Assembly (NCBI GenBank): GCA_963845275.1
Contig: CAWJRR010000008.1
Span: 3,129-67,128, forward strand
Length of the DNA stretch: 64,000 nt
Source: Candidatus Bathyarchaeota archaeon
Lineage (GTDB): Archaea > Thermoproteota > Bathyarchaeia > 40CM-2-53-6
Direction of reading: 5' to 3'
This document shows, in pieces, positions 1-62,767 of the stretch (its first letter is position 1; each line of letters opens with the position of its first letter). The notes under the pieces were generated by a model that was not told the DNA's origin, did no database searches, and was given only the letters and a program-made list of their open reading frames with translations. The translations under genes were made by a program, and so were the position numbers.

Positions 1-936
1 TCAAATGCACCCTTTATTGTTACTTTTCCCAGTTCACAGGTTATTGATGCAACAGCTTTTGCCTCAAAGGTTGACTTCACTACCGGAACGGAACCTAATA
101 ATGTTGCCATTGGTGACATAGATGGCGATGGCAAACCTGATCTGGTTGTTACAAATTCTGGCAGCAATACTGTTTCGGTCTACAGGAACATAAGCACCTC
201 CGGCTCCATTACAGCCGGTTCATTCGATGACCAAGGTTGACTTTACCACAGGATCATATCCACAGGGTGTTGCTCATTGGTGACATTGATGGAGACGGCA
301 AACCTGATTTAGTCGTTACAAATTATAACAGCAATACTGTTTCTGTCTACAGGAACACCAGCACTTCCGGTTCTATTACAACAAGCTCATTCGCTGCCAA
401 GGTTGACTTCACAACCGGATCGAATCCACAGGGTGTTGCTCATTGGTGACGTTGATGGAGACGGCAAACCTGATTTAGTTGTTACAAATGAAGGTAGCAA
501 TACGGTTTCAGTCTTCAGGAACACAAGCACATCAGGCTCCATTACAGCAAGTTCATTCGCTGCCAATGTTGACTTCACCACAGGAACGAATCCATTATGG
601 TATTGCCATTGGTGACATTGATGGAGACGGAAAACCGGATTTAGTTGTTACAAACTATGCAAGCAATACGGTTTCCGTCTACAGGAACACAAGTACCTCC
701 GGTTCTATTACATCAGGCTCATTCGCTACCAATATTGACTTCACCACAGGAACGAATCCAATTGGTATTGCCATTGGTGACATCGATGGCGATGGCAAAC
801 CTGATTTAGCTGTTACAAATGCAGGTAGCAATACGGTTTCGATATACATGAACACCAGCACCTCAGGTTCTATTACATCAGGCTCATTCGCTACCAATGT
901 TGACTTCACTACAGGATCGAATCCTTATAGTGTTGC
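1..936 (+). pseudogene. FG-GAP/VCBS-type repeat protein; cut by the window edge at its 5' end, multiply frameshifted, 3'-truncated
   Basis: There are about five 55-aa units with GD(I/V)[36 protein letters not shown]. Unit starts (GGTGAC) at 112, 279, 445, 611 and 776 give spacings of 167/166/166/165 nt, so frame is lost in the first three units. ORFs 237-449, 403-615 and 479-1108 are the same gene in different frames. The repeat consensus stops abruptly near 936. Confidence 0.8.
112..936. repeat. Tandem ~166-bp coding repeat (FG-GAP units)
   Basis: Near-identical GGTGACATTGATGGAGACGGCAAACCTGATTTAGTTGTTACAAA cores recur at 112, 279, 445, 611 and 776. Confidence 0.85.
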
Positions 937-1608
937 CAGAGCGTTCACCAGGCCCCATGTTCCAGCGGCAATTAAGAAGAATCTTCCTCGCTTCTTCCAA
1001 TTTGGAAGTCCCGCAAGCATTGCGAATATCATAATGCCTGGGATAAATTTCGTTAGCACCGCCATTGCTAGACCGAACGCGCTTTTGTCATACCGCTTCT
1101 CGAGGTAATACCATATGGATAGGGTGGAGAAGAATGCTACCACAATGTCCCAGTTGTAGAACCCGTAAACTAGGAAAGTAAGCGTAGTTAAAATGTACAA
1201 ATAGATTCGAAACGTTGACAGACGGAGCTTGATACACATCTTGTACAGGAGATAGAGCGTTCCTATCATGAACGGATATTCCAGGACGGTCATCGTAACA
1301 ACGAAGGTGTTGTACTGGTCTATGACGACCGGAAGGTATGTTGAGACAGCTTGGCTGAGGATGATTAAAGCTCCTATTACCTGTGGATATTCGAGTTCAT
1401 ACTGAACGTACGGCACCTGAAGGTTGTGGTGTCCTTGGTAAACATCTCTTATCCAGAGGTAGCCGACATCACTGTAGAAGTTGGGAACCATTAAGGGAAT
1501 TTTCACGAGGGAAGTGAAGACCCATAGCGACGAAGCAACGACGAGCATTAGCTTGAAGTATTCGTCCTTGCTCAGCAAGGCCAGGAAGCTATTTCCTGTA
1601 CTCTTCAT
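925..1608 (-). CDS. Polytopic membrane protein, DUF2029/GT-C glycosyltransferase-like, probably C-terminally truncated
   Basis: 227-aa ORF with multiple hydrophobic helices and a YELEYPQVIG motif resembling the F.YPP loop of GT87/DUF2029 proteins. It is about half the length of the two paralog-like genes at 2500-3801 and 5159-6418. Its last codons are read from FG-GAP repeat sequence. Confidence 0.5.
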   Translation of the reverse strand: MKSTGNSFLALLSKDEYFKLMLVVASSLWVFTSLVKIPLMVPNFYSDVGYLWIRDVYQGHHNLQVPYVQYELEYPQVIGALIILSQAVSTYLPVVIDQYNTFVVTMTVLEYPFMIGTLYLLYKMCIKLRLSTFRIYLYILTTLTFLVYGFYNWDIVVAFFSTLSIWYYLEKRYDKSAFGLAMAVLTKFIPGIMIFAMLAGLPNWKKRGRFFLIAAGTWGLVNALATL

Positions 1609-1706: not shown

Positions 1707-2543
1707 TTGAGAATGAAGATCCTAACCATATTTTTCATCGCCTACGTAATCGCGTTAAGTTTCATCCCGCTCGTTCACCAATTGTTCATTGCTCAAAGTT
1801 CATGGCTAGGATATGGCACAGGGGCCTACGCTTACCAGAGCCCCACATACTTCGTACTATTCAACGACCCGTACGATGGTAGCAGTAAGCCAAACATTCA
1901 TGTGAATCCGTCTTTCGCGCCTAACGAGCGCATCAGTATCGTTGAATTCAGCGATTGGACGAGTTACGTTGACGGTTTCAACCTATTCAATGACTTCAAC
2001 GTAACAATACGCGCGTCCGGTGATGGAAAGACTTTGGACGCCACGTACACGAGGCCAGGACTTGTTTTGCACAAGATGATTGAACTCTCCGCCGACACGG
2101 TCCAAGTGAAGATGATTGCAAACAAGGAAGTTAATGCGCACGTGGAATTATGGAAGTGGATAATGACCTCCGTGAACAACTTTACGATCGCTACCGCACC
2201 GAAGCCAATGGTGATCCCAACTTCTACAAGCATCAACTTCACGTTCAATGATCAATCCTTGAACGCGACAGGAGTCGGACAGATTTCATTATCTCGAATT
2301 CCAACACAGATTGAAGTGTGGCCGTTCGAGAACGGATTCAACCGGGTGACTGTGGATTTCATAAATAGTGAGATGACCTTCGCAGTCTCAGGTACAATTA
2401 CTGAACCAGGCCAAGTAAGCTGGAGTTACGGTGACTTACCCTTTGTGTTGCCGGTAATCGCCATCATTACGGTCACCGGATACCTGCTGGTCGAACGCCA
2501 TGGACAAAAGGATAAAGATCGTACTAGCCGCTCTCATAGTTAG
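1707..2543 (+). CDS. Hypothetical envelope protein (N-terminal signal/anchor, C-terminal TM helix plus charged tail)
   Basis: 278-aa ORF. N-terminus is MRMKILTIFFIAYVIALSFIPLV. C-terminus is LPFVLPVIAIITVTGYLLVERHGQKDKDR. Confidence 0.5.
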   Translation: MRMKILTIFFIAYVIALSFIPLVHQLFIAQSSWLGYGTGAYAYQSPTYFVLFNDPYDGSSKPNIHVNPSFAPNERISIVEFSDWTSYVDGFNLFNDFNVTIRASGDGKTLDATYTRPGLVLHKMIELSADTVQVKMIANKEVNAHVELWKWIMTSVNNFTIATAPKPMVIPTSTSINFTFNDQSLNATGVGQISLSRIPTQIEVWPFENGFNRVTVDFINSEMTFAVSGTITEPGQVSWSYGDLPFVLPVIAIITVTGYLLVERHGQKDKDRTSRSHS

Positions 2544-3801
2544 AGTGGTCATCGCGCCATTCTTCATGCACGCGGGTGATTTGGGCACAATTTTCGAATC
2601 AAGCGCAATAGCGTTGAATGGCGGCAACCTGTACAATTTCGTGTACCAGCAAACCGTGCAGATGCAGTACGCAACGGGGTTACCGGTCTTCTTCGAAGGG
2701 TATGCATATCACCCTCTACTCATCTACTTCTTTCTCCCATTCTACTGGGTGTATACTTTGATCGCGGGGCCTGGCCCAGCGATCATCGGAGGCCACTTTC
2801 CAAGTCTCCCTGTGCTCGTATACCCGTGGGCCCTGGTCGCGATCTTCGTGCTCAAGATTCCGATCATATTGGCTGATGTTGCCGTCGTGTACATATTATC
2901 AGGGTTCGACATCAAGAAGGCGGAAATTTACGCGTTCTGCCCTTACATTATTTTCATCTCAGTAGTATGGGGAATGTTCGACGCGATCGTCGCAGTTTTC
3001 CTCCTGTTATCATACCTCACTTTCAACAACAAATGTTCGTACGCGCTTTCTGGATTCACTTACGGCCTCAGCCTCATGAAGCTATACACGATCGTTCTTC
3101 TCCCATTGTACGTGGTGAGACTCTGGGGGAAATGGGGGGACCTATGCAAATTCCTGCTCGGATTGTTAGTCACTCTCATACCGGTAGCCTACTACTGGAT
3201 AGTGAGCCCAATCGCCTTCTGGAATGTGCTGGTTGGTTTTCAAGGAAGTCGCGTCATGGGCGGAGTGAACTTGTATAACTTCGTCTGGATCATTCCGGAC
3301 GTTCGCTTTGATCTCCAATTGTCTATGATCCCAACCATTCTGCTGGTATTCAGTGTGGCTGTGATCGTTGTAGCGTATGGTCGACGATTACCATTGCTTG
3401 AAGCCATTCTGGCCGTAATGCTTGTCAGCTTCCTTTTCGGCAAAGTCCTGAATGAACAATTTCTCGTATCCGTATTCCCGCTGATGCTTCTGTGCAAGAA
3501 GTGTGACACTAGACTTTGGATCGCTCCCTTCATTTTCATCTTCTTACGATCCCCCTTCTACTATTTCGCGATCCCGATCTTGTGGAGTAGCCCCTACTTC
3601 TACGACCTCTACTTTCAGGCAGACACAATTTGGCGTAACTTGCAGACCGCAGGCTACCTGACGATACCCATGTACACGGTCGGAGTAGGCTTTTCGCTTC
3701 TACTGTTGTGGAATTTGATTCAAGTTCTAAGCACATCTCGTCCCGCCGGCGGTCCGTTGTCGCGCATTCTCTCTCGTGTATTACGCATTCGGCGCAAGTA
3801 G
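2500..3801 (+). CDS. Polytopic GT-C-fold glycosyltransferase-like membrane protein
   Basis: 433-aa ORF with more than 10 predicted hydrophobic helices and an acidic first-loop motif (HAGDLGTIFES). Its size and architecture match archaeal/bacterial GT-C mannosyltransferase-like proteins. Confidence 0.55.
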   Translation: MDKRIKIVLAALIVRVVIAPFFMHAGDLGTIFESSAIALNGGNLYNFVYQQTVQMQYATGLPVFFEGYAYHPLLIYFFLPFYWVYTLIAGPGPAIIGGHFPSLPVLVYPWALVAIFVLKIPIILADVAVVYILSGFDIKKAEIYAFCPYIIFISVVWGMFDAIVAVFLLLSYLTFNNKCSYALSGFTYGLSLMKLYTIVLLPLYVVRLWGKWGDLCKFLLGLLVTLIPVAYYWIVSPIAFWNVLVGFQGSRVMGGVNLYNFVWIIPDVRFDLQLSMIPTILLVFSVAVIVVAYGRRLPLLEAILAVMLVSFLFGKVLNEQFLVSVFPLMLLCKKCDTRLWIAPFIFIFLRSPFYYFAIPILWSSPYFYDLYFQADTIWRNLQTAGYLTIPMYTVGVGFSLLLLWNLIQVLSTSRPAGGPLSRILSRVLRIRRK

Positions 3802-4349
3802 TCTACGGAGAAGCATGAGACGGCGAAGATTAACACGACAAGCTTCGCGGCGAAGACCACGTTTATAGCGTAAGGGTTAGCAGGCCACCAGTTCACGATA
3901 ATGTCAGGATTCTGCAATCCTTGAACGGCCAATCCTGCAGACCACAGTACGATTTGATAGAGGACCTCGAAGCCGCTTAGCATTACGAAGAACCAGGCGA
4001 GTATGTAGAGTGATTCGAAGAATTGGTCACCGATCCGTAGCATTCTCTGTTTAGAGATGGGCGAATTAAGACCGAAGCAGTATGAGAGGAAGAACATGTA
4101 CATGAAGAGCGTTATTGGCTTCAGTTGCAAAATGCCAAGATCGATTTCCGCGCTGACTAGGCTCTGGCCGAGTACGTATGGTGATGAGGCGCTAAGGGTA
4201 TAGTAGAAGAGGACACCGATGCTCATGAATCCGAACAGGATTGAGAGAATGTTCATCGCGGGTATCCTACGACCTGGGACACCGAAGGGAGGGTAGAGAG
4301 AGAAGGGGCCGGAATCCTCAGGGCCACCTTTGGTAACGCGTCTGTCCAA
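3720..4349 (-). CDS. Hypothetical integral membrane protein
   Basis: 209-aa ORF with about five hydrophobic helices. The true start may be the internal MNILSILFG. It overlaps the 3' end of 2500-3801 in convergent orientation. Confidence 0.4.
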   Translation of the reverse strand: MDRRVTKGGPEDSGPFSLYPPFGVPGRRIPAMNILSILFGFMSIGVLFYYTLSASSPYVLGQSLVSAEIDLGILQLKPITLFMYMFFLSYCFGLNSPISKQRMLRIGDQFFESLYILAWFFVMLSGFEVLYQIVLWSAGLAVQGLQNPDIIVNWWPANPYAINVVFAAKLVVLIFAVSCFSVDYLRRMRNTRERMRDNGPPAGRDVLRT

Positions 4350-4385: not shown

Positions 4386-5162
4386 TTAAGGATTTAGTCG
4401 GAACTTGATATCCGGTGCAAAAAGCTGCACTATTGCACTCTGAGGCGAGAGAGGAAAGTGGAGACCGTCACGAGACAGAGCAATCCCACTCACATAGGCC
4501 GAATGCCAACCCACGGCTCTCCCTGCCACGCCGAGAACAATGCTGAACGTTAACTTCTCTGGAGTACTCCAGCGCATCATTCGGTACTCATTCGCAATGT
4601 TCAACTTTTCAAAATACCAGGCGCCTGACGGAGTCGGCAGGAACACAATCCTCTGATCAGGCAGGTTCTTGACGCCCTGCAGCTCATCCGAGAGTACGTA
4701 GCTAATGGTGTGAACGCCGTCATTCGTTTCGACAGCTAAAATAACTGAGGTCCCGTTGAAGAGGTCAGGGTCACAGTGGCACTGCTCCTTCAAAGCCCAG
4801 AAACCTATGCTCGCGTTCATCAGCTCAGTCAATCGGGCACCGTCCAGGGTTTGAGATATGCCTGCGTAGGCCCATCGCGATTGTACTCCGCTTTGGAACA
4901 CTCTCAACTCAAGAGCAGACTTACCTTGCAAACTCACCTTGCTAACTCCGACACTATCGCTCGGTCCTTTGACTGCTTCAAGAGTCCATACCACGAGCCT
5001 AGCACCGTCAGGGCCAGTAACCCATAGGTTGAAGTTGGGATCTAAGATTGCGGGCGGCCCTGTGTATGTGCCTTGAAGGTTCAGGAAAGCAAAAGCCGCG
5101 GCAATAATCAGGATTGCTACGGAGATTGGCGCGAAGTAGCGTTTCACTTGCTTTGACTTCAA
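4386..5162 (-). CDS. Hypothetical N-terminally anchored extracytoplasmic protein (last gene of the five-gene operon)
   Basis: The listed ORF 4386-5312 overlaps the upstream gene. A TTG at 5162-5160 overlaps the upstream stop (5161-5159) and is followed by KSKQVKRYFAPISVAILIIAAAFAF (a TM anchor). Confidence 0.5.
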   Translation of the reverse strand: MKSKQVKRYFAPISVAILIIAAAFAFLNLQGTYTGPPAILDPNFNLWVTGPDGARLVVWTLEAVKGPSDSVGVSKVSLQGKSALELRVFQSGVQSRWAYAGISQTLDGARLTELMNASIGFWALKEQCHCDPDLFNGTSVILAVETNDGVHTISYVLSDELQGVKNLPDQRIVFLPTPSGAWYFEKLNIANEYRMMRWSTPEKLTFSIVLGVAGRAVGWHSAYVSGIALSRDGLHFPLSPQSAIVQLFAPDIKFRLNP

Positions 5163-6418
5163 CCAGGTCGCCTCGATTTCATGGACGAGCGGGGTCTTGA
5201 CTCTGCGCTGTACCAGAGGAGGAGAGAGACGAGCATGAGAGGCATCCAGTAAATTACGTAGCTCGTGAGCGCTCTGAAGGAAAACCAGAGAATGATTCCT
5301 GGAAAGATCCACAGCATGTATCGGAGCTTATCGAAGTAGATGTAATAATTGCCAACGAGCACGATCAACACGCCAATTGCTAAAATTGAGTAAAACACTC
5401 TACCAACACTGATGAGTCCGACCTGGGAGAGAACTGCTGGACCCTGGCTGAGAATAACCAAGTCCGACGTGATTGGCGTAATGACATTCCTGAACCAGTC
5501 AGCTGGGTTGGCATAAGCGAACGGCAAGTTCACGAGCAGGAAAAGCCCGGCAGCTGGACCAAAGAAGGAAGCGATTCTGCGGAGCTTGATTCGCCAGTCC
5601 CCGGGGGTAACGCGAATGAGGTAGATTATGAGGAAAGGCGCTAGAAGCCAAGGTGGCTGCTTGAACGCGCATGCGATACCGTAGAAGAACCCTGAAACCA
5701 CCTGCCGCTTATCCAGCGTGTAGGCCGCGCACATCAAGGGCAGAACCCAAAGCATGTCGGATACGCTCGAGGCGGTGAAATTAATCAGAAGATCTGCTCC
5801 AGCGAATAGTGGAAGGATCAGCATTGGCCTAAGGTTGACAGGCGCTTTCAAGTAAAGCAGTAGAATCGCAGCTACCTCGAATATGACGAGAACCCACCTC
5901 ATGTCCCTTAAGCCTGCTAACACGAATGGTACGAAGACTAAGAAGTGGAGCGACGGGTACTGGAATGTTGCTAAGTAGCCTCCGGTGGTCAAAGGAGTTA
6001 GATCGGACGGTTGCACGGCAAACATCGCGAGAGCCGGCGTCAGGTCATGCGTGTAAGGATTCAATCCCTTCGTAACGAGAATCGCCGCGTACTGACTAAA
6101 CGCCAACACATCCGTCCTGTATGATCCTCGATACGCGATCTCCGCAACCACATACACGCTCGTGATTATCGAGAGAAGAAGCGGGATCAGCGAGAAATCC
6201 TTGAACTTGAACACGGTCTTGGTAGGCATGAGTGATAATGCGATTATGAATAGTGAGACGCCGTACAACAACAAGGTTAGTACTGCGACTTCAGGGTGAA
6301 TGTCAGCCCTGCCGCGATTCCAATCCTGAAAACCCTCGTAGAGTGCAAACTGACCAACGAAAAGAAATGAGAGGCGTAAGATGAATGATTCGTATCGCAC
6401 TCGACTGAATGAGCTCAC
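5159..6418 (-). CDS. DUF2029/GT87-like polytopic glycosyltransferase-like membrane protein
   Basis: 419-aa ORF containing KGLNPYTHDL....FQYPSLHFLVF, which matches the G.N.Y ... F.YPP pattern of GT87/DUF2029. It has many TM helices. Confidence 0.6.
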   Translation of the reverse strand: MSSFSRVRYESFILRLSFLFVGQFALYEGFQDWNRGRADIHPEVAVLTLLLYGVSLFIIALSLMPTKTVFKFKDFSLIPLLLSIITSVYVVAEIAYRGSYRTDVLAFSQYAAILVTKGLNPYTHDLTPALAMFAVQPSDLTPLTTGGYLATFQYPSLHFLVFVPFVLAGLRDMRWVLVIFEVAAILLLYLKAPVNLRPMLILPLFAGADLLINFTASSVSDMLWVLPLMCAAYTLDKRQVVSGFFYGIACAFKQPPWLLAPFLIIYLIRVTPGDWRIKLRRIASFFGPAAGLFLLVNLPFAYANPADWFRNVITPITSDLVILSQGPAVLSQVGLISVGRVFYSILAIGVLIVLVGNYYIYFDKLRYMLWIFPGIILWFSFRALTSYVIYWMPLMLVSLLLWYSAESRPRSSMKSRRPG

Positions 6419-6433
6419 TTTTCTATTGCATCC

Positions 6434-7156
6434 TCACTTCCCAGTTCCATTGGTCCTGCCTCGACGCCGCCGTTTGATCTTGTAAACTAGAAATTCCAGA
6501 ATGGGAAAGTTGAGGAAGATTACGAGGACGAGCGCAACTGTCACCCAAGCTGCGACAACGATGCTCTCACTCCGACCAGGATGAAAGAAAGGTTGAGGAG
6601 ACATTACACGCCTGACTTGCTGAGACACGCCGTTCCCAACTATTATGTCTCGCCAGATCGTTCCACCGTTAGCTAAGTTATTGATCTCGAAGGTAGTCGT
6701 ACCGTTTCCACCCGACATCAACCAAACGTAGATCTGCGGCATCGAAAGATCCACGTCGAACACAACATCGGCGTACACTTCAGAATAGCGAAAGTCCAGA
6801 AGCCCCTTGTAGAAGCTCATCAGATCGCCGTGTCGGACAATAGTCTGATTGTACACCTGATCTTGCCATGGAAGCTTTCGGCCAACATCCAAAGCGTAGT
6901 CAATGTATTTTCCAGTAAACCAGCCACTTGCGAGAACAGTCCCAATCCTGATCCCGTTTGAGTTGGTGCCGTTCAAGTCGTCAAACAGAACCCGGCCCCA
7001 GTCTGATGTTGACTGGATGATGATCCGCATCGGCTCCGTCTCCTGCCATTCTGCTGGAAGCAGTTGGCCGGATACGGGTGAAACGCCGTTGCTAGCCGTG
7101 ATGAATGAGGCGGAGAGTAAGGTGAGTATGACGATTCCGACAAGTCGCCTCTGCAA
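6434..7156 (-). CDS. Secreted protein with C-terminal TM helix and Arg-rich tail (candidate sortase-type substrate)
   Basis: 240-aa ORF. Signal peptide is MQRRLVGIVILTLLSASFITASNG. C-terminus is IVVAAWVTVALVLVIFLNFPILEFLVYKIKRRRRGR. Confidence 0.55.
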   Translation of the reverse strand: MQRRLVGIVILTLLSASFITASNGVSPVSGQLLPAEWQETEPMRIIIQSTSDWGRVLFDDLNGTNSNGIRIGTVLASGWFTGKYIDYALDVGRKLPWQDQVYNQTIVRHGDLMSFYKGLLDFRYSEVYADVVFDVDLSMPQIYVWLMSGGNGTTTFEINNLANGGTIWRDIIVGNGVSQQVRRVMSPQPFFHPGRSESIVVAAWVTVALVLVIFLNFPILEFLVYKIKRRRRGRTNGTGK

Positions 7157-7157
7157 G

Positions 7158-8216
7158 TTAATGGCCTCCCGTCGACTTCACTTTTCTTCTCGCCTTGGGC
7201 GTCGATTCTTTCTTCGGCTTCTTTCCCTGACCAGCTCTGGGAGCTATTCTATCCTCAATCTCCAGTATTAACACTAGGAATACGACTATCCAGATTGGAA
7301 AGAGCACCTCACCGATCGCGTTATGAAACGCGTCAAGTTGTTGTCCGCTCGTTGCGTACACGTAGCCGTAGTATGAAATTGTGAAAATTCTTACCACGTT
7401 GAGTAGTATCGTGCCTGCGATTCCAACCGCGGCGTAAATGATCTTCCGCAGCAGGGGAGCTTGCAGCTTCGCTGCGATAACGATCATCACCACTGAGTAG
7501 ATCAGGATGCTCTGTACACCAACGCTGGGCCAGTAGACAACCAGTCGGTAGTAACCGTGCAAGCCATTAATTGTTAGGTGATTCGTGTATCCGTAAATGG
7601 GGAGACCGAACACTTTCGCTAAGAGCGCAACGCCTGCCACGATGAAGTTCGCCCAAAACTGTAATGGACCTAGCGACCCGTAGGGGAAGAAAGCGTCGAG
7701 CATGTAGAAAACCAACATTCCGAGTGAAAAGACGATTGGGGTAATTATACGACGAATCGTCCCCAGATCAAAGAGCACTGTCGTTAGGATGGTGAGGTAG
7801 ATGCTCATGGCAATGTAGTCGGTCGCCATCAGGAAACTGTTACTTACCTCACCTGACGCACCCAATGATTTGCCGACGGAGTAGATGAAATCTGTCACCT
7901 CTTGACCTAGGCCGACTTGAACAAAGTAGACGGTTGCCCCAAGTACGGTAAGTGCGACCGCAACCTTACGCATCCTGGTCCAATGAATCTTGCCATTCTT
8001 GAAATCTAACAGGTCGAAGCCGAGGAAGAACAATACGAAGAATAGGCCGCCTCTACCTAGCTTCCCGAACCCCGCCCAGCTTAGCTCGAAGGTTTGCGGA
8101 GCGACCATGAAGAGGAATAGGATTGGCACCGCGACCAGGATTAGGAGAACATCACGGCCGCTGATTCGCCGCAGACTCTTCACTAGGTCACTAGTTGTCT
8201 TCGGCAGGGGAGACAT
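7158..8216 (-). CDS. Exosortase/archaeosortase-family polytopic protein; Ser at the position where the catalytic Cys is expected
   Basis: 352-aa ORF with about eight TM helices. VYWPSVGVQSILIY lines up with the family's ..CSG..S motif, and it is followed by LLNVVRIFTISYYG (conserved Arg) and FHNAIGEVLFPIW (conserved His). Confidence 0.6.
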   Translation of the reverse strand: MSPLPKTTSDLVKSLRRISGRDVLLILVAVPILFLFMVAPQTFELSWAGFGKLGRGGLFFVLFFLGFDLLDFKNGKIHWTRMRKVAVALTVLGATVYFVQVGLGQEVTDFIYSVGKSLGASGEVSNSFLMATDYIAMSIYLTILTTVLFDLGTIRRIITPIVFSLGMLVFYMLDAFFPYGSLGPLQFWANFIVAGVALLAKVFGLPIYGYTNHLTINGLHGYYRLVVYWPSVGVQSILIYSVVMIVIAAKLQAPLLRKIIYAAVGIAGTILLNVVRIFTISYYGYVYATSGQQLDAFHNAIGEVLFPIWIVVFLVLILEIEDRIAPRAGQGKKPKKESTPKARRKVKSTGGH

Positions 8217-8226
8217 TCACAGTTAC

Positions 8227-8973
8227 CTAGAAGACACGATCTTTTGGATAGACCTCTATTCCTGATGGGCCTATTTGATACGGACGAAGTTGAGTATCAT
8301 GCCCAATTCCCCTCATCTTCTCCACCTGTAACGCACGTATCACATTCCCCTCATGCACCATCGTATGCAACAGGACTACGCCCTGAGACAGGTACTCCTC
8401 AATCTGAAACCGCCTCGCTAGCTCCGATGTCCGCAACTCACTCGTGACGAGGCAGGAGCATCCCGTTGACTCCAGCGCATCGAAGAAGAGGAGTAAAGAT
8501 CGCCTACGCTTCGGCTCCTCCGGGTAACGCAGCATTAGGGAAGTGATCGGGTCAACGGCTATTCGTTGAATGTCTTCCTCCGTCGCGATCCGTCGAATCG
8601 TTCGAGCTAACGAGCCTAATGTTAATTCAGGAAGAACTAGCTCAACCCCCTTCTCAGACGACACCCGAGTATCAACCTTAGGTCCCGGCCTCTTCAACGG
8701 TGTCGCATCAATCAACGTAAGCGTTCCATCATGCTCTAGGGCTTCAAGGTTCCAGTTGAAGCCAGACAAGTCGCCTTTAACCCTCTCAGGCTTCTCATCA
8801 AGAGAAACATACAAGCCCGATTGACCGGACTTTGCTCCATTCGCTAAGAATTGCATTGCAAAAGTTGTCTTCCCCGAGCCCGGACTTCCCACGACCAGGA
8901 TGGTTCTACCCTTAGGCAAGCCCCCGTGCAATATCTCGTCGAGTCCTTTGATTCCGGTAGGAGTCTGCTCCAA
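8227..8973 (-). CDS. KaiC/RecA-superfamily single-domain ATPase
   Basis: 248-aa ORF. It has GIKGLDEILHGGLPKGRTILVVGSPGSGKTTFAMQFL (Walker A) and a hydrophobic strand plus acidic Walker B-like segment (IQRIAVDPITS). Confidence 0.8.
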   Translation of the reverse strand: MEQTPTGIKGLDEILHGGLPKGRTILVVGSPGSGKTTFAMQFLANGAKSGQSGLYVSLDEKPERVKGDLSGFNWNLEALEHDGTLTLIDATPLKRPGPKVDTRVSSEKGVELVLPELTLGSLARTIRRIATEEDIQRIAVDPITSLMLRYPEEPKRRRSLLLFFDALESTGCSCLVTSELRTSELARRFQIEEYLSQGVVLLHTMVHEGNVIRALQVEKMRGIGHDTQLRPYQIGPSGIEVYPKDRVF

Positions 8974-9185
8974 ACCTGCTAACCCACACTTTGTGACGTG
9001 TAGCGGAGCCCATTAATTAGGTATAGTCTCAAAACGAGAATTAGCATCATGAAATTTGACTCTGTAACGCTCTATGCGGATGTTCGTATTAGCGACTTTT
9101 CGGTAGATTCTCCCCTTCCTAACTAGGCCTTGATACTGAATTAATACAGGACGAAACGTATGCTAAGACTACGAGTGTAAGGTAA

Positions 9186-9857
9186 ATGAGCAGACGAATG
9201 AGCTTGACTGTTGGCTTGTTCGCAGTTTTAGTTCTACTAGCGAGTTGGTTCACCGTTCCAGCCTTCGCGACCTTCTGCCAGATCAGTAGTATATCGTACA
9301 ATTATCCTCGGCAGGTCTTGCCGAGCCAGAGTTTCACCACGACAGTTACTGTGAGCGGTGTTTGTGCTCCTGACGACGCTAACTACTACTCGGTCAGAAC
9401 TGATTTGAACGACATTTCAGGCCTCGTCCTATCGGCCGTATCCGTCCCGATCGGATTCAGCCAGGGCCAGAACTGGACAGTCAACGCAGAGAACCAACTT
9501 ACTGCACCAACCAGTTCCGCCCCATGGCAGATTCAGTTCGCCGTGTACATTTTCGCTGCCGTCGGCAGCGGAGGGACGCTAGATTCAGCAACATTCAAAC
9601 CAGTAACCATACAAGTGGGAACAACACAACCAGCTCAAACTACCACGTCAATCAACCTCACCACAACTCAGACAGAAGCCCCTCCCGTCATGATCTCATC
9701 AACCGCACTAACGTCGAGCACAGCCCTGAACCAAACCACCGAAACCGCACAACCGTTTCTTGATGTCTACAGAGGGGTGGCTGCAGTTCTGGTTCTCATT
9801 CTTCTGGTAATGGTGGTAGTTCTCGTTAAGCAGAGGCAGAACAGGCGTGGCGCATGA
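9186..9857 (+). CDS. Secreted Thr-rich protein with C-terminal TM helix and basic tail
   Basis: 223-aa ORF with a signal peptide (LFAVLVLLASWFTVPAFA), a Thr/Ser-rich linker, and C-terminus GVAAVLVLILLVMVVVLVKQRQNRRGA. Confidence 0.55.
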   Translation: MSRRMSLTVGLFAVLVLLASWFTVPAFATFCQISSISYNYPRQVLPSQSFTTTVTVSGVCAPDDANYYSVRTDLNDISGLVLSAVSVPIGFSQGQNWTVNAENQLTAPTSSAPWQIQFAVYIFAAVGSGGTLDSATFKPVTIQVGTTQPAQTTTSINLTTTQTEAPPVMISSTALTSSTALNQTTETAQPFLDVYRGVAAVLVLILLVMVVVLVKQRQNRRGA

Positions 9858-9964: not shown

Positions 9965-11044
9965 ATGCGAAATTATCTGTTTCTGCAAGCCGCGTTAATC
10001 GTGCTTGTGTTGGGCGGAGGGTTCTGTTTTGCATTATCAACGGTTAGCCTAGTGTATGCATATCCGTACAGTTGGTGGGGATCCAGCTGGGGCTGTCCCT
10101 ACTCGTATTATTACTCATGGTTTTGCCCCTACTATAGTTACTATTACCCTTACTACTATGGATATTATTCGAACCCATATTCGTATGGTTACTCATATTA
10201 CACGCAGCCCACTCAAGTTCAATTATCGGTGAACGTTAACCCGTCGAGTCTACAAAGCGCTGTCACTGTCACTGGGGCAGGATCCTATAACCAAGGAGGC
10301 TCAGCTACTTTTTCAACCTCCCAGAACGTCATTCAGGTTTCTCAGAACACAAGATACGTTTTCTCGAATTGGGCAGGCGACTACTCCGGCCAAGGCTTGA
10401 ATGGTACAGTAACCATGAATTCCGCCAAGGCAGTCACTGCCGTTTACCAAATACAATACTACCTCACAGTCAACTCGCCATCGAACGTCCCATCAATTCT
10501 GGGAAGCGGATGGTACAATGCAAATGATTCAGCTACGCTCACCGTGCCGTCCCAAATCGTGGGAGATACAGAGAGCAGACTCGTGTTCAACGGCTGGAAC
10601 GTTGATGGGACTAATGGTCCGACAAGCTCTACACTGACCGTTCGGATGAGCGCTCCTCACACCGTCACGGCACAATACAAACAGCAGTACTACCTAACTG
10701 TCACGAGCGATCAAGGCCCCACGTCCGGAACAGGATGGTATGATGCCGGCGCTCAAGCTCAGATCTCAGCCTCCACACCTCCAAGTCCAGCCTACGGAAT
10801 CAGTATGTTCTTCAACGGTTGGAACGGCACCGTGAATTCGCCATCAAACCAATCGACAACCGTCCTCATGGACGGACCTAAATCAGTGACCGCGACCTGG
10901 CGAGCTGACGCGACCGTCCTCTACGCAACCATAGCAGCAGTCATAGCGGTGATCGCAGTTGCAACATACCTCATGGTAACGCGCCGGAAACAAACAACAA
11001 ACAATGTGGCAGACACCCCAGGTCCCCGCGCCGGCAAAAGTTGA
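9965..11044 (+). CDS. Secreted protein with a Tyr-rich low-complexity segment, four YYLTV-type repeat domains and a C-terminal TM anchor
   Basis: 359-aa ORF. A signal peptide is followed by YPYSWWGSSWGCPYSYYYSWFCPYYSYYYPYYYGYYSNPYSYGYSYY. About 65-aa repeats then end in (A)VTAVYQIQYYLTV / VTAQYKQQYYLTV, resembling the divergent InlB B-repeat type. The C-terminus carries a TM helix plus RRK. Confidence 0.6.
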   Translation: MRNYLFLQAALIVLVLGGGFCFALSTVSLVYAYPYSWWGSSWGCPYSYYYSWFCPYYSYYYPYYYGYYSNPYSYGYSYYTQPTQVQLSVNVNPSSLQSAVTVTGAGSYNQGGSATFSTSQNVIQVSQNTRYVFSNWAGDYSGQGLNGTVTMNSAKAVTAVYQIQYYLTVNSPSNVPSILGSGWYNANDSATLTVPSQIVGDTESRLVFNGWNVDGTNGPTSSTLTVRMSAPHTVTAQYKQQYYLTVTSDQGPTSGTGWYDAGAQAQISASTPPSPAYGISMFFNGWNGTVNSPSNQSTTVLMDGPKSVTATWRADATVLYATIAAVIAVIAVATYLMVTRRKQTTNNVADTPGPRAGKS

Positions 11045-34621: not shown

Positions 34622-35221
34622 TTAAGCGAATAACTTTCTTTCTCGCCTGATGATTAGTGCAACCAGGCTTAAGGATAGTGTGAGTGGTATCGCTATGCTC
34701 CAGACGGGGAATTCTGGAGTCGCAGTATTAACCGACAACATGGATGAATTAGCGCTCGTTGTGAGTGTTATGAACGGAGGATAACTCAGATCGATTGTTG
34801 CGTAACCGCTGGCAATCTGACCTAAGCCGTTGTTTCGGTAGACGAAGAGCATGTAGTATGTCCCGCTGGTCGTGATGGCAGCGTTGTATGTATTGTTCGA
34901 TCCGCCGACTTGCGTATACATGAAGAGAGGATACGCACTTTGAGGAAGAGAGCAGGTGTTCCCTTGCACAAATGCGTTGAAGTCGTTTTGAGACAGAACA
35001 TAGAAATCGAGGGTGACATCAGCTGTGAAGTATCCCTGAATAATTTGACCCTTCTGTGCTGAAAATGCAAACGGAAGTAACGCACACTGATGCGGCGGAG
35101 GAGTGTTAACTGTCACAACCGTATACGCTGCGCCTGACTGGCTATTGGCGTTTGGAACTATGAGGAATGGAATGAAGATTGCGACGAGTAGAAGAATGGA
35201 GATTATGGCTTTGCTCGTCAT
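34622..35221 (-). CDS. Secreted protein with a PEF-CTERM-like C-terminal sorting signal
   Basis: An internal ATG at 35221 starts MTSKAIISILLLVAIFIPFLIVPNANSQS (signal peptide). The C-terminus is TPEFPVWSIAIPLTLSLSLVALIIRRERKLFA. It appears inside the 669-aa ORF only because the upstream gene lost its stop through a frameshift. Confidence 0.55.
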   Translation of the reverse strand: MTSKAIISILLLVAIFIPFLIVPNANSQSGAAYTVVTVNTPPPHQCALLPFAFSAQKGQIIQGYFTADVTLDFYVLSQNDFNAFVQGNTCSLPQSAYPLFMYTQVGGSNNTYNAAITTSGTYYMLFVYRNNGLGQIASGYATIDLSYPPFITLTTSANSSMLSVNTATPEFPVWSIAIPLTLSLSLVALIIRRERKLFA

Positions 35222-35280
35222 GCTATCACAGACAATAATGACGGTCAAGGTCTGGGCTATTAAACTGATCAGGTCATGTT

Positions 35281-36631
35281 TCAAGTCTTCATGTGAGGTA
35301 GGGACTGCGTTGGGCTGCCGTGGCAGTTCTTCACTTTTCGTCCACTTCCGCAGGGGCAGAGTTCGTTCCGTCCTAGTTTCTCCACCGCGGCCATGAGGGT
35401 CAGCGTTCTCCACTGCCAGAATCTTGCTGACCTCAGCTGCGGGGTGGCCATCGCGAATTAGCGTGGCCATTATCTTCATTGCGTGGTCGGCGTGGTTGAA
35501 GAATGCCTTGTACCCTGCACACAAGTAGTTTAAGCCTGGTTCTCCGTCGGGTGTTTTGATGAATCTGTTTTTTGGGCATTCTCCGTTACAGGCAAACCTG
35601 ACTTCGCACTCCCTGCAGTAGCGAGGTAGCGTGTCAAGCTTATCTTGACCGAACTTCTGCTGCTGGGCCGAAGCAACCAACTCGACCATGTGCTGTTCCT
35701 TGATGTTGCCCAACAGGTACTTGGGTTCGACAAAATGATCGCAGGAGTACATATCCCCATTATGCTCCAAGGCTAAGCCACGACCACACGTCTTGTCAAA
35801 AACGCACATCCCTGATGAAGGTAACCCAACCCAATTGCGTACCGCAGCCTCAAAAGTTTGAACGAATACTCGCCCGACGTCGTTGTGCACCCATTCATCG
35901 AAGATTGTTATGAGAAAGCGGCCGAACTGTTCAGCGCGAACAGAACGCTCAGAAACCGTTGTCCCTTCCTGGATTAATGTTAGGCCGCTTGAGTTGATTC
36001 GTTCAACTACCGGAATGAGTTGAATCCAGGTTGTTCTTGCTTCGTCACGCAGGAAACGGTAGACTTCAAGCGGATGATCACCATTGACACGGTTCACCGT
36101 GGTAAGAACATTGTACTCCACTCCATTATTCTGCAGCAAGCGGAGCCCGCGCATCACTTTATCGAACGTTGGCTTCCCCTTCCGATCAACACGGAACGCG
36201 TCATGCAACTCCCGTGGGCCATCAATACTTATGCCGACCAAGAAATCGTTCGCTCTAAGAAACTCACACCACTGATCACTGAGCAGCGTACCATTCGTTT
36301 GAATCGTGTTTTCGAACGTCATCCCCGGACGCCGGTACTTTTTCTCATACTCGATCGCGCGCCGGAAGAAATCGAGGCCCATCAAGGTCGGTTCGCCACC
36401 CTGCCAGGCAACTGTCACTTGATTTGTGCGATGGGATTCAATCAGCTGCTTAACGTATTGTTCGAGGAGTTGATCATCCATACGAAAACTGCTGCCTGGA
36501 TAGAGCTGCTCCTTATCCAAGTAGAAGCAGTACGCGCAGTCTAGGTTGCAGATTGCACCCGTCGGTTTAGCTAGTACGTGGAAGCTGGGGGGACCGGTAT
36601 TGCTCATTGCTTCCGCGCTCAACGACTCCAC
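35281..36631 (-). CDS. Anaerobic sulfatase-maturating enzyme (radical SAM/SPASM), with a frameshift near the 3' end
   Basis: It has the radical SAM motif [16 protein letters not shown] and the SPASM Cys clusters ([18 protein letters not shown]). A SEC-C-like [14 protein letters not shown] (35341-35358 onward) is readable only in another frame, which ends at a TGA at 35281-35283. Confidence 0.8.
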
Positions 36632-59712: not shown

Positions 59713-59928
59713 CTACGTCATCTTAGTTCCGTCATAGCGTCTGCGTCGTAGTACGTATAGTGATGCTGCTAGTGCTGATGCTGCCGCGATAACTAATCCG
59801 TTGAATTCGGGTACGGGTATGTTGCTTTGCTCCAAGTACACGTTCTGTCCTTGCGCGTTCACATCCGCCGAAACGGCAACGGACCAGGACTGAGACGCGT
59901 AACCTGGATCCCTCGCCTCGCCTAACAA
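59713..59928 (-). pseudogene. 3' remnant of a PEF-CTERM-type surface protein gene
   Basis: The ORF ends ..NIPVPEFNGLVIAAASALAASLYVLRRRRYDGTKMT (PEF + TM + Arg cluster). It has no signal peptide and no ATG, and an in-frame stop lies a few codons upstream of the listed start. Confidence 0.45.
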
Positions 59929-60058: not shown

Positions 60059-60949
60059 ATGTTCATGGTAACTATCAAGAAGAGGCGGATAGGGGGCAGA
60101 ACATACTACTATCTGGAGCACAGCGTGCGCAGAGAGCGAAGGGTCGAGAAGCGGGAGAAGTACCTCGGCAGGAGCATGCCCAAGAACATGCAGACAGTGA
60201 AAGCGGAATTTCTCCACAACATATACAGGGAGAAATGGTTCGATGTCTTTGACCGGATAAAGAAGAACTACTCGGAAGAAGAGAAGCTTACTCCTAGATC
60301 CGCAAGGGGGGAAGAACTTAGAAAATTCTCGATCAGGTTCACGTACGACACACAGAGGATAGAAGGATCGAAGCTGACGCTGAAGGAGACCGCAGAGCTC
60401 CTAGAAGCGGGAATAGCGCCAAGCGGTAAGCCGATTCGTGACGTAAAGGAAGCAGAAGCGCACCAGAACGTCTTCAGCGAGATGCTCAAGCAACAGAAGG
60501 ACCTCTCACTCCAGCTAATCCTCCACTGGCACACTAAGCTTTTCGAAACAACTAAGCAAGACATAGCTGGAAGAATAAGAAAGCACCAGGTTGCAATCTC
60601 AGCCAGCAAGTTTATTCCGCCATCACCCGCAGAAATACCTCCTCTCTTGAGAGACTACTTCAGATGGTACGAACGAAGCAAGCAGAAACTACACCCAGTT
60701 GAACTGGCATCACTGGCGCATCTGAAATTCGTAACTGTGCATCCTTTCGCGGACGGCAACGGCAGAATCAGCAGGCTGATAATGAACTTCATCCTACACA
60801 GGAACGGCTTCCCCATGCTCAACATTACCTACCAGAAAAGAAGCAGCTACTACAATGCCTTAGAAAGATCCCAGACCAAGAGGCAGGATCACATATTCAT
60901 GCAATGGTCTTTCAGAAGATACCTCAAAGAGCATAAGAGATACGTTTAG
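60059..60949 (+). CDS. Fic-domain protein (AMPylase family) with an N-terminal intramolecular inhibitory motif
   Basis: 296-aa ORF with the Fic motif HPFADGNGRISRL. TQRIEG (residues 98-103) matches the (S/T)xxxE(G/N) inhibitory helix motif. Confidence 0.85.
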   Translation: MFMVTIKKRRIGGRTYYYLEHSVRRERRVEKREKYLGRSMPKNMQTVKAEFLHNIYREKWFDVFDRIKKNYSEEEKLTPRSARGEELRKFSIRFTYDTQRIEGSKLTLKETAELLEAGIAPSGKPIRDVKEAEAHQNVFSEMLKQQKDLSLQLILHWHTKLFETTKQDIAGRIRKHQVAISASKFIPPSPAEIPPLLRDYFRWYERSKQKLHPVELASLAHLKFVTVHPFADGNGRISRLIMNFILHRNGFPMLNITYQKRSSYYNALERSQTKRQDHIFMQWSFRRYLKEHKRYV

Positions 60950-62125: not shown

Positions 62126-62767
62126 TTATGCTAAAGTGCCTGTTGTCGGAACGTTCCTAGTTTCGGCGACGCGACGTGCCAAAGCTACGGTTGCAGCAAC
62201 ACGGCGTTTCTCTGCCTGACGAGCCATAGCTACAGCTGCCATTCGACGTTTTTCAGCACGGCGAAGTGCGGTCACGGTTGCAAGGCGACGTTTCTCTGCG
62301 CGACGGAGTAATGCAATAGTTGCGAGACGACGTTTCTCAACACGACGTGCTAAAGCAACTGCTGCAATGCGACGATTCTCGGCACGGCGAATCAGGGCGA
62401 GTGCTAGGAGTCGTCCTTTCTCAGCTCGGCGGCGTAAAGCGACGGCAAGCGCGAGACGTCTCGCTATGCGGCGTTCCTCAACACGACGTGCTAGTGCAAT
62501 TGCGGCAATGAGGCGTCCCTTCAAGCGGCGTTCCTCGGCCCGGCGAGCCAATGCCACAGCCAGGACGACTCGCCTTTCAGTTCGGCGTAACTCAGCAACG
62601 GCCCTAAGAAGACGCATCTCAGCAACAGTCCTGAGGCGACGCGTGTCAGATACGGTGGTAAAGAGACGTGTTACAGCAACGGCTCTAATGCGACGAGCCT
62701 CAGCAACGGCCTTGATGAGACGTATTTCAGCTAATCGTTCTTGTTGTCTAACAGACATGTTTATCAC
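62126..62767 (-). CDS. Arg/Ala-rich tandem-repeat protein (about 13 units of ~14 aa); strand assignment tentative
   Basis: 213-aa ORF with units such as RRAEKRRLATIALL, RRAEKRRLATVTAL, RRAEKRRMAAVAMA, RRVEKRRLATIALL and RRAENRRIAAVALA. The underlying DNA period is 42 bp, with two 57-bp units. AT-rich TATA-like sequence lies upstream (62771-62790). Confidence 0.45.
   Translation of the reverse strand: MINMSVRQQERLAEIRLIKAVAEARRIRAVAVTRLFTTVSDTRRLRTVAEMRLLRAVAELRRTERRVVLAVALARRAEERRLKGRLIAAIALARRVEERRIARRLALAVALRRRAEKGRLLALALIRRAENRRIAAVALARRVEKRRLATIALLRRAEKRRLATVTALRRAEKRRMAAVAMARQAEKRRVAATVALARRVAETRNVPTTGTLA

Follow-up and report, generated by a model that had tools for sequence, protein, structure and literature searches.

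The described systems closest to the locus reported here are the thaumarchaeosortase (TIGR04297) of ammonia-oxidizing archaea with its PEFG-CTERM targets, the archaeosortases ArtA and ArtC, the bacterial EpsH/exosortase (XrtA) loci, and the small archaeal KaiC-like ATPases. Archaeosortases, PEF-type tails, a hidden Markov model (HMM) for thaumarchaeosortase, exosortases in glycan loci and KaiC-like ATPases beside membrane systems are all already known. Bathyarchaeia are among the most abundant uncultured archaea of soils and sediments and, to our knowledge, almost nothing is known of how they construct their cell surface. We analyzed a stretch of 64,000 nucleotides (nt) from a Candidatus Bathyarchaeota archaeon, an uncultured soil organism (contig CAWJRR010000008.1, hereafter the window), in which the gene for a KaiC-like ATPase heads a tight cluster encoding a predicted serine-type sortase, a probable GT-C-type glycosyltransferase and several envelope proteins.

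The thaumarchaeosortase model is the HMM closest to the window sortase, and the two enzymes share a layout of eight transmembrane (TM) segments and a Ser in place of the Cys nucleophile (WPS.G). Their likely target tails are also alike, with (I/V)PEF followed by G, or by S/N and then G; PEFG-CTERM proteins are reported from Nitrosopumilus (PMC6593220). Unlike thaumarchaeosortase, to which it is ~32% identical, the window sortase is found in a Bathyarchaeia host and scores 147.6 bits against the model's cutoff of 250, and the thaumarchaeosortase-type loci (n=80) have no KaiC, GT-C or C- and E-type protein (see below) nearby. With ArtC/PEF-CTERM and ArtA/PGF-CTERM, the window system has in common the superfamily signature TIGR04178, the conserved Arg and His, a candidate tripartite signal (motif, TM segment and basic cluster) and a putative surface or S-layer-type cargo, whereas its nucleophile would be Ser instead of Cys, its score with the ArtC model (TIGR03762) is 27.3 bits for a cutoff of 100, and its candidate tails match the PEF-CTERM model below cutoff. 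Archaeosortase C is reportedly paired with PEF-CTERM, and archaeosortase A (ArtA of Haloferax volcanii) with PGF-CTERM. In a literature search, including the review PMC6098224, ArtA and ArtC were not described with an adjacent KaiC ATPase or GT-C gene, in agreement with the original prediction, made from the letters of this DNA, that the described archaeosortase systems do not include a dedicated KaiC-type ATPase. We also found no description in the literature searched of a conserved operon in which KaiC heads a Ser-type sortase and GT-C module, of a KaiC-sortase linkage in three clades including a receptor-like KaiC fusion, of cassette exchange in a fixed frame, or of repeated Cys/Ser switching.

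Bacterial EpsH/exosortase genes are found "nearly always" amid exopolysaccharide genes (PMC1569441), and an exopolysaccharide cluster regulated by a tyrosine kinase and containing an exosortase has been described (epsSMASH preprint). The window locus resembles these XrtA loci in having a sortase-family gene in a surface-glycan cluster and a P-loop regulator in the conserved part beside a variable cassette. The XrtA loci include a chain-length regulator and a tyrosine autokinase. The likeness to bacterial capsule and exopolysaccharide loci, where a variable region comes after the conserved autokinase gene, is one of organization only; unlike in the XrtA loci, the window ATPase is of the RecA/KaiC type and not homologous to the MinD-type tyrosine kinases, and there is neither an outer membrane nor a PEP motif. 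Like PH0186, PH0284, ArlH and CirA-type regulators, it has ~250 amino acids (aa), one KaiC domain and the Walker A and B motifs, and such ATPases are often encoded beside membrane machinery (ArlH in the archaellum). Unlike the named archaeal KaiC-like ATPases, it falls below every subfamily cutoff and has different partner genes.

The KaiC-headed gene cluster and its products

The features of the minus-strand cluster are the following.

9011-9019 (-): TATA-box-like element TAATTAATG, ~40 nt upstream of the KaiC start, in an aligned conserved block
8227-8973 (-): single-domain KaiC-like ATPase of the RecA superfamily, 248 aa, first gene of the operon (PF06745)
7158-8216 (-): eight-TM sortase of the exosortase/archaeosortase superfamily, thaumarchaeosortase-like, with Ser231, Asn273, Arg276 and His298 (HMM, motif columns, hydropathy)
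6434-7156 (-): protein C, with a signal peptide, a β-rich ectodomain of ~170 aa, the motif PQPFFxPGRxE, a TM helix, the motif LNFPxLE and a basic tail (alignment, synteny)
5159-6418 (-): protein D, a polytopic GT87/ALG6-like putative glycosyltransferase of the GT-C type (GT87 profile matches of orthologues)
4386-5162 (-): protein E, an N-terminally anchored extracytoplasmic protein of 258 aa (hydropathy, public gene call)
3720-4349 (-): g3720, a small membrane protein with 3-4 TM segments and the conserved motif WWPANPYAINVVFAAKLVVLIF, which follows E in all sufficiently long loci

The original prediction described the first five of these genes as tightly spaced minus-strand open reading frames (ORFs) with a stop/start overlap, and we found the five ORFs exactly where it placed them, with start codons TTG (KaiC), ATG (sortase), TTG (C), GTG (D) and TTG (E, at 5162), and products of 248, 352, 240, 419 and 258 aa, respectively. 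Protein E lies within a longer listed ORF, 4386-5312 (-), and its 258 aa result from a start at an internal TTG (5162). Read off the strand, the intergenic gaps are 10 nt (8226-8217), 1 nt (7157) and 15 nt (6433-6419), and D and E overlap by the four bases TTGA, the TTG start of E (5162-5160) lying over the TGA stop of D (5161-5159). All five proteins, with identical starts, are called as genes on the public contig of 67,584 bp. The predicted extent proved too small: a sixth co-directional gene (3720-4349), absent from the original prediction, lies 36 nt after E (36-55 nt in the public calls of relatives), and the conserved cluster also comprises the convergent pair 1707-2543/2500-3801 described below.

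With gaps of 10, 1, 15 and -4 nt, a second promoter would find no non-coding space, so that co-transcription from KaiC onward is supported, short of proof. The element at 9011-9019, the sole TATA-like motif on the coding strand between 3600 and 9300, is the probable promoter of the operon; a TATA-like block of the AAGTAAATAATATG type occurs ~40 nt upstream of KaiC in 12 of the 12 loci aligned, including those with an alternative cassette (see below). The sole run of five T's in the same interval falls inside the 3' end of gene E. Base composition is even throughout the region, and an Rfam scan of the whole window gave no match.

The first product, predicted to be a Walker-A KaiC/RecA-type ATPase, is indeed one: it matches PF06745 with 197 bits (E=3.9e-58, cutoff 26.6), has a Walker A motif, GSPGSGKT, at residues 29-36 and contains no TM segment. 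None of the named subfamily models (circadian KaiC, the archaeal KaiC_arch families and ArlH) matches it above cutoff; the scores are, for example, 29.7 bits versus 215 for ArlH and 137 versus 249 for KaiC_arch_3. It also differs from circadian KaiC (NF006799 and TIGR02655) in having one domain and scores of 157.7 versus 408 and 105.4 versus 546. Among solved structures, it comes nearest to KaiC CI domains and to PH0186 and PH0284 of Pyrococcus, and a weak match to mad8 in PADLOC is at the level of the P-loop.

The second product was likewise correctly called as a polytopic exosortase/archaeosortase-like protein. It matches the signature model TIGR04178 over residues 227-320 (47.1 bits, cutoff 23) and PF09721 (28.3 bits, cutoff 25.7), thaumarchaeosortase is its best subfamily (E=5.4e-43, under cutoff as given above), and a Kyte-Doolittle scan shows eight hydrophobic segments. 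The family is small, with 286 clusters at E<=0.001 in a full scan of 1.8 billion representative proteins. From an alignment of 62 full-length representatives of this family, we read the motif columns: Asn273 and Arg276 are invariant (62/62), His298 is present in 61/62, and the column of Ser231, which lies in the motif WPSVG of the window sortase, holds Cys in 38/62 and Ser in 24/62. The window sortase thus departs from the superfamily in lacking the invariant catalytic Cys, as do four bona fide thaumarchaeosortases scoring above the TIGR04297 cutoff (265-527 bits), all of which have Ser in the motif WPSAG. Ser- and Cys-type sortases are intermixed on a rough neighbour-joining tree, which implies several switches of the nucleophile, and a working nucleophile would be expected to alternate between Cys and Ser in this way. 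By the positive-inside rule and hydropathy, Ser231, Arg276 and His298 would lie at the outer membrane boundary, in agreement with the model proposed for EpsH (PMC1569441). A search of Protein Data Bank (PDB) sequences with the sortase-family profile found no solved exosortase or archaeosortase structure.

The topologies predicted for the three remaining products were reproduced by hydropathy, with a signal peptide, a C-terminal TM helix and the tail KIKRRRRGR in C, at least seven TM segments in D, and a single N-terminal TM segment in E. Protein C starts 0-4 nt after the sortase gene in most public gene calls, including those of a clade whose sortases are 49% identical to that of the window, with larger called gaps in three relatives (L095, L104 and L106; loci in relatives carry L numbers throughout). 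No match to C was found in Pfam, NCBIfam or PADLOC, and a single-sequence structure model, with a predicted local distance difference test (pLDDT) value of 44, was unusable. Its ectodomain is as conserved as its tail, and LNFPxLE is conserved after the TM helix; conservation of this kind, over the full length, is more in keeping with a stable membrane subunit than with a signal that is cleaved off. The ectodomain also has two N-G-T sequons (FDDLNGTNSNG and GGNGTTTF) inside the blocks best conserved among orthologues, the first being invariant or nearly so, while the Asn of the second differs in a few orthologues. They may serve for glycosylation or belong to a binding site.

Protein D, predicted to be GT87-like, scores 19.1 bits with GT87 (PF09594), under the cutoff of 25, and the assignment is supported at the level of its family: 19/32 orthologues match GT87 at E<=0.01 (best E 4.6e-8) and 2/32 match Alg6_Alg8. 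Two acidic residues of the loop YEGFQDWNRG after TM1, which probably faces outside, are conserved, Glu28 without exception and Asp32 to at least 90%. An AlphaFold model built from an alignment of 32 sequences is of moderate confidence (pLDDT 68.9); Foldseek returned no match to it at E<0.7, the top template modelling score (TM-score) of 0.36, which is not significant, being with GPI mannosyltransferase I, a GT-C enzyme. A search of PDB sequences with the D-family profile gave nothing usable. D is probably a divergent GT-C enzyme. Protein E evolves fast (36-50% identity between orthologues), and neither E nor g3720 has a match in Pfam, NCBIfam or PADLOC.

Conservation and rearrangement in relatives

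The scan of a genome collection reached only close relatives, and the wider view comes from look-ups of contigs that encode the sortases. The 14 relatives from the collection are annotated as Bathyarchaeia, except for one contig binned as Methylomirabilota. The latter (L002, DATKOK010000106.1, from a "Methylomirabilota bacterium" metagenome-assembled genome) carries the cluster with a KaiC and a sortase 94% and 81% identical to those of the window, respectively, and is probably mis-binned. As judged by tblastn and ORF clustering, every sufficiently long locus, at sortase identities of 56-95%, shows the order sortase-C-D-E-g3720 followed by the convergent genes g2500 and g1707:

2500-3801 (+): g2500, a conserved membrane protein of 433 aa with eight TM segments, second gene of the convergent pair, 62-94% identical in relatives
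1707-2543 (+): g1707, a conserved protein of 278 aa with a signal peptide and a C-terminal TM helix, first gene of the convergent pair (synteny)

Further contigs with public gene calls show the same order and tight spacing, including 4-nt overlaps; the contigs of a Cys-type relative (P0124) and of another relative (P0419) are too short to help. The recurrence of this order and close spacing in over 15 independent contigs, across this range of sortase identities, indicates that the five-gene arrangement is not due to chance. The ATPase-sortase-GT-C order noted in the original prediction recurs in relatives, HMMs place the 352-aa protein in the sortase superfamily, and nothing that we found puts the ATPase in a separate transcription unit.

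KaiC heads one of the two operons in 13 of the 15 informative loci, with these positions:

KaiC directly upstream of the sortase, gap 10-46 nt: window, L001-L004, L007, L095, L104, L105, L106
KaiC at the other end, heading g1707-g2500, gap 17-42 nt: L006, L010/L097, L096
KaiC not seen in the available flanks, toxin-antitoxin genes there instead: L012, L014

In several relatives, toxin-antitoxin pairs (PIN/VapB, ParE/RelE-like, MazE-like) are inserted where the island ends or where its two operons meet, which suggests that the region is prone to recombination:

L012, 12796-13295: toxin-antitoxin insertion
L014, 14838-15254: toxin-antitoxin insertion
L103, 13844-14472: toxin-antitoxin insertion
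L104, 8041-8498: toxin-antitoxin insertion
L106, 6885-8607: toxin-antitoxin insertion

The linkage of KaiC and sortase extends to three divergent sortase clades, with differing arrangements. In the 49%-identity clade, the operon consists of a KaiC fusion, a sortase paralogue, a 286-aa protein, the sortase and a C homologue, separated by 30, 17, 6 and 0 nt. Its first gene encodes a protein of 701-734 aa in which a single TM segment joins Ig-like domains outside the cell to a KaiC domain in the cytoplasm. The KaiC domain matches PF06745 (E=6.5e-18 for the L096 orthologue), and the protein is only 25% identical to the window KaiC. The Ig-like domains of these receptor-like fusions are of the CarboxypepD_reg/bMG3 type, and the cytoplasmic KaiC domain is accompanied by DUF7504:

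L096, 17631-19832: receptor-like KaiC fusion, N-terminal signal-like segment seen
L098, 5844-7949: receptor-like KaiC fusion
L099, 5745-7949: receptor-like KaiC fusion
L104, 1-866: receptor-like KaiC fusion

In the 35%-identity clade, the sortase gene lies between those of polytopic proteins and adjoins a CelA/PgaC-like processive GT2 gene, with a stand-alone KaiC 1.8-3.6 kb away. In three such loci (L100, L102 and L103), KaiC is 76-77% and the homologue of g925, a gene at the edge of the window island, 59-69% identical to the window proteins, whereas the sortase reaches only 35% and there is no C, D, E, g3720, g2500 or g1707. The same genomic frame here holds an alternative cassette:

L100, 6695-8350: alternative cassette with CelA/PgaC-like GT2, polytopic proteins and sortase
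L102, 6641-8296: same cassette
L103, 6701-8356: same cassette

As read from these loci, the common frame consists of a surface protein, KaiC, a variable cassette, and the genes g925-GT2-epimerase-GT2-kinase-HAD, the cassette with its sortase being exchanged or inverted. The high identity of KaiC where the sortase is only 35% identical indicates that KaiC belongs to the island and is not a partner co-evolving with the sortase. The linkage itself recurs in three clades, but KaiC is not tied to this particular sortase.

The picture is different for 80 metagenome loci whose sortases share at least 69% identity with a bona fide thaumarchaeosortase: within 8 kb, these loci contain no homologue of the other twelve window proteins, and the sortase is a lone gene amid housekeeping genes. 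These loci are probably of the ammonia-oxidizer type.

Candidate cargo and flanking genes

We searched the Bathyarchaeia loci, in every frame, for tails made up of a motif, then a TM segment, then a basic end. IPVPEF(S/N)G-TM-RRRR tails occur near the island in seven relatives, and proteins of 1171-1473 aa terminate in a near-identical tail, SNIP(V/I)PEF(S/N)G(I/L)A(V/I)VAFSALAASLY(L/V)LRRRR. For the complete genes of L003, L104 and L100, a signal peptide can be seen. In L003, L004, L007, L105 and L100, the last of which has the alternative cassette, the PEF-tail genes are co-directional with KaiC and stop 183-192 nt upstream of it; L095 and L104 have such genes too. Scanned with the PEF-CTERM model TIGR03024, five of the seven tails were covered over positions 1-25 of 25 with 12.2-18.9 bits, below the cutoff of 23. 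Similar (I/V)PEF(G/P) tails are found in loci that encode bona fide-type thaumarchaeosortases. The large PEF-tail protein upstream of KaiC in relatives is the likely cargo of the sortase.

The window itself has one such tail, in an orphan ORF:

59713-59928 (-): orphan ORF of 71 aa with the PEF-CTERM-like tail YLEQSNIPVPEFNGLVIAAASALAASLYVLRRRR (TIGR03024 positions 1-25 of 25, 13.8 bits, cutoff 23)

In this ORF, the complete tail is followed by seven extra residues, and the ORF adjoins a Fic-domain gene at 60059-60949 (+) with the motif HPFADGNGR. It looks like the remnant of a putative cargo gene.

The genes around the island were also compared with those of relatives.

925-1608 (-): g925, the truncated 5' half (227 aa) of a membrane protein of 421 aa in relatives
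9186-9857 and 9965-11044 (+): two divergently transcribed surface proteins, the first with a Ser/Thr-rich stalk (ORFs, tail comparison)

The original prediction had counted 925-1608 and 2500-3801 as two further GT-C-like genes flanking the operon; the former is a truncated gene, and for the latter the call has no support. Only the 5' half of g925 is present, broken off against an FG-GAP array. In relatives, GT2, epimerase, GT2, APH-like kinase and HAD genes come after its complete counterpart, and g925 weakly matches NF046093, a family of cell-surface glycopolymer formation (E=0.0038). The array, a plus-strand FG-GAP/VCBS-type repeat at 1-1108, jumps between all three frames and abuts the truncated gene; it is a decayed gene or, alternatively, an assembly join with collapsed repeats close to the end of the contig. 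As for g2500, 0/9 orthologues have a Pfam match, NCBIfam, PADLOC and a profile search of the PDB gave none either, and paralogy with D was rejected as well (hhalign probability 0.4%). The 3' ends of g2500 (+) and g3720 (-) overlap by 82 nt (3720-3801), and the convergent genes overlap by ~10-80 nt in several relatives, e.g., L003, L004, L096, L104 and L105. g1707, which in some relatives directly follows KaiC, has no match in Pfam, NCBIfam or PADLOC.

The proteins encoded at 9186-9857 and 9965-11044 have no PEF-type tail, and their repeat domain recurs in a protein of ~960-990 aa encoded upstream of the sortase in other relatives. The C-terminal TM helix and basic tail of C, g1707 and these two proteins find no support as sorting signals: the four tails and that of the ~960-990-aa protein have no common motif, only family-specific conservation, and no sorting-signal model matched any of the four proteins. 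A layout of signal peptide, TM helix and basic tail is generic for type-I membrane proteins. Further away, a 669-aa radical SAM/SPASM protein (34622-36631, -) with internal TM segments ends in TPEFPVWSIAIPLTLSLSLVALIIRRERKLFA, a PEF-TM-basic tail; a cytoplasmic location is expected for this protein, and no sorting-signal model matched its tail. A 213-aa ORF at 62126-62767 (-) consists almost entirely of Arg/Ala-rich repeats (ALARRAEKRRLA).

Proposed function and alternative explanations

Starting from the observed homologies, gene order, spacing and co-occurrence, we propose that the locus is an envelope-biogenesis island, in which a KaiC-headed operon would combine a serine-type sortase processing a PEF-tailed protein, glycosylation by a GT-C enzyme and a regulatory KaiC; we regard this as somewhat probable, its substrate, the direction of regulation and every biochemical activity being predictions. 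One promoter upstream of KaiC would drive KaiC, the sortase, C, the GT-C protein D, E and the small membrane protein, with the convergent pair adjoining. The sortase would be a membrane transpeptidase or protease with its predicted Ser231, Arg276 and His298 at the outer face, and would most likely act on a large secreted protein of the surface, possibly of the S-layer, cleaving its C-terminal IPVPEF(S/N)G-TM-RRRR tail and re-anchoring or releasing the protein. The GT-C enzyme would probably add sugars from a lipid-linked donor on the same membrane face where the sortase acts, and the cytoplasmic KaiC would most likely be a regulatory switch, working by nucleotide binding or autophosphorylation, that couples the state of the cell to processing.

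KaiC as an energy source for the sortase is less likely. KaiC remains constant while the cassettes change, and a KaiC domain is elsewhere fused to an extracellular domain, which suggests a regulatory or sensing role for the whole island rather than a motor matched to one sortase. The surface-protein processing and glycosylation module with an energizing or regulatory ATPase, as originally predicted, is thus supported in part and retained as a proposed envelope island, with the regulatory role favoured over the energizing one. In a bolder form of the proposal, which we consider unlikely, KaiC, free or fused by one TM helix to the extracellular Ig-like sensor, would be an integral cytoplasmic part of a serine-sortase machine, gating the C-terminal processing and the glycosylation of the main surface protein by its nucleotide or phosphorylation state.

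Several observations weigh against the proposed island. With Ser at the Cys position, the chemistry could be another one, or catalysis could be lost altogether; the model of D, with a pLDDT of 68.9 and a best TM-score of 0.36, does not confirm a GT-C fold; the matches of the tails to the PEF-CTERM model are all below cutoff, and the window holds the orphan tail without an intact PEF-tail gene. KaiC is not seen in the visible flanks of L012 and L014, is missing from all 80 loci with sortases at least 69% identical to a bona fide thaumarchaeosortase, and, as it does not co-evolve with the sortase, could be a simple conserved flank gene. The last point leads to the main rival, in which the envelope module is real but KaiC is a mere conserved neighbour, a general signalling or housekeeping ATPase in a syntenic frame. 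This is rather doubtful in our view, even though, besides these absences, the 76-77% identity of KaiC in L100, L102 and L103, despite a 35% identical sortase and six missing genes, speaks for it, and archaea are said to have many KaiC paralogues. Against it, KaiC is always co-directional with, and 10-46 nt from, an abutting operon, even when the cassette is inverted; there is no space for a separate promoter before the sortase; and a different KaiC-domain protein, only 25% identical, independently heads a sortase operon in another clade.

The remaining explanations concern the sortase and its substrate. That protein C is the dedicated substrate in a one-to-one pair, with KaiC and the GT-C protein as accessories, appears quite unlikely: C lies within 0-4 nt of the sortase gene in most calls, co-diverges with the sortase down to the 49% clade and combines a signal peptide and a basic tail with a TM helix and a conserved juxtamembrane motif, but a stable membrane subunit fits better with an ectodomain as conserved as the tail and with LNFPxLE after the TM helix, no sorting-signal model matches C, and C is missing from the alternative cassette. 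The sortase-like protein might also act on a glycan, as a polymerase, ligase or flippase-like protein working with GT-C and GT2 enzymes, its Ser reflecting that role. The window is without an intact sorting-signal protein, the sortase gene sits amid polytopic proteins and, in the alternative cassette, beside a CelA/PgaC-like synthase, the Cys nucleophile shown to be important in ArtA is replaced here, and EpsH was at first guessed to be a flippase or polymerase (PMC1569441). We nevertheless judge a glycan substrate very unlikely, given that the Arg, His and Asn motifs are kept, that Cys/Ser alternation in one column is typical of a nucleophile, that PEF-type tripartite tails are encoded beside the island in relatives and similar (I/V)PEF(G/P) tails in bona fide-type thaumarchaeosortase loci, and that ArtA is proteolytic (PMC6098224). 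An anti-virus defence or mobile-element module, finally, is scarcely credible. Toxin-antitoxin pairs and a transposase do lie beside or inside the island in several relatives, and KaiC has its P-loop-level match to mad8, but the other nine proteins have no PADLOC match, the content is one of envelope proteins and glycosyltransferases, and the composition is uniform across the region.

Read as an envelope-biogenesis island, the locus would provide a parts list for the surface of Bathyarchaeia, comprising a serine-type sortase, its cargo with a defined tail, an enzyme that transfers lipid-linked sugars and a switch in the form of an ATPase. With an uncultured host, testing of the module will be slowed. 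The repeated Cys/Ser flips of the nucleophile in this archaeal branch of sortases bear on the catalytic mechanism of the exosortase/archaeosortase superfamily. If KaiC does gate the sortase, the locus would hold the first sortase system under nucleotide control and a counterpart, in archaea, to the autokinases of bacterial capsules. More broadly, the control over surface-polymer assembly that tyrosine autokinases exert in bacteria may fall to KaiC-like ATPases in archaea.

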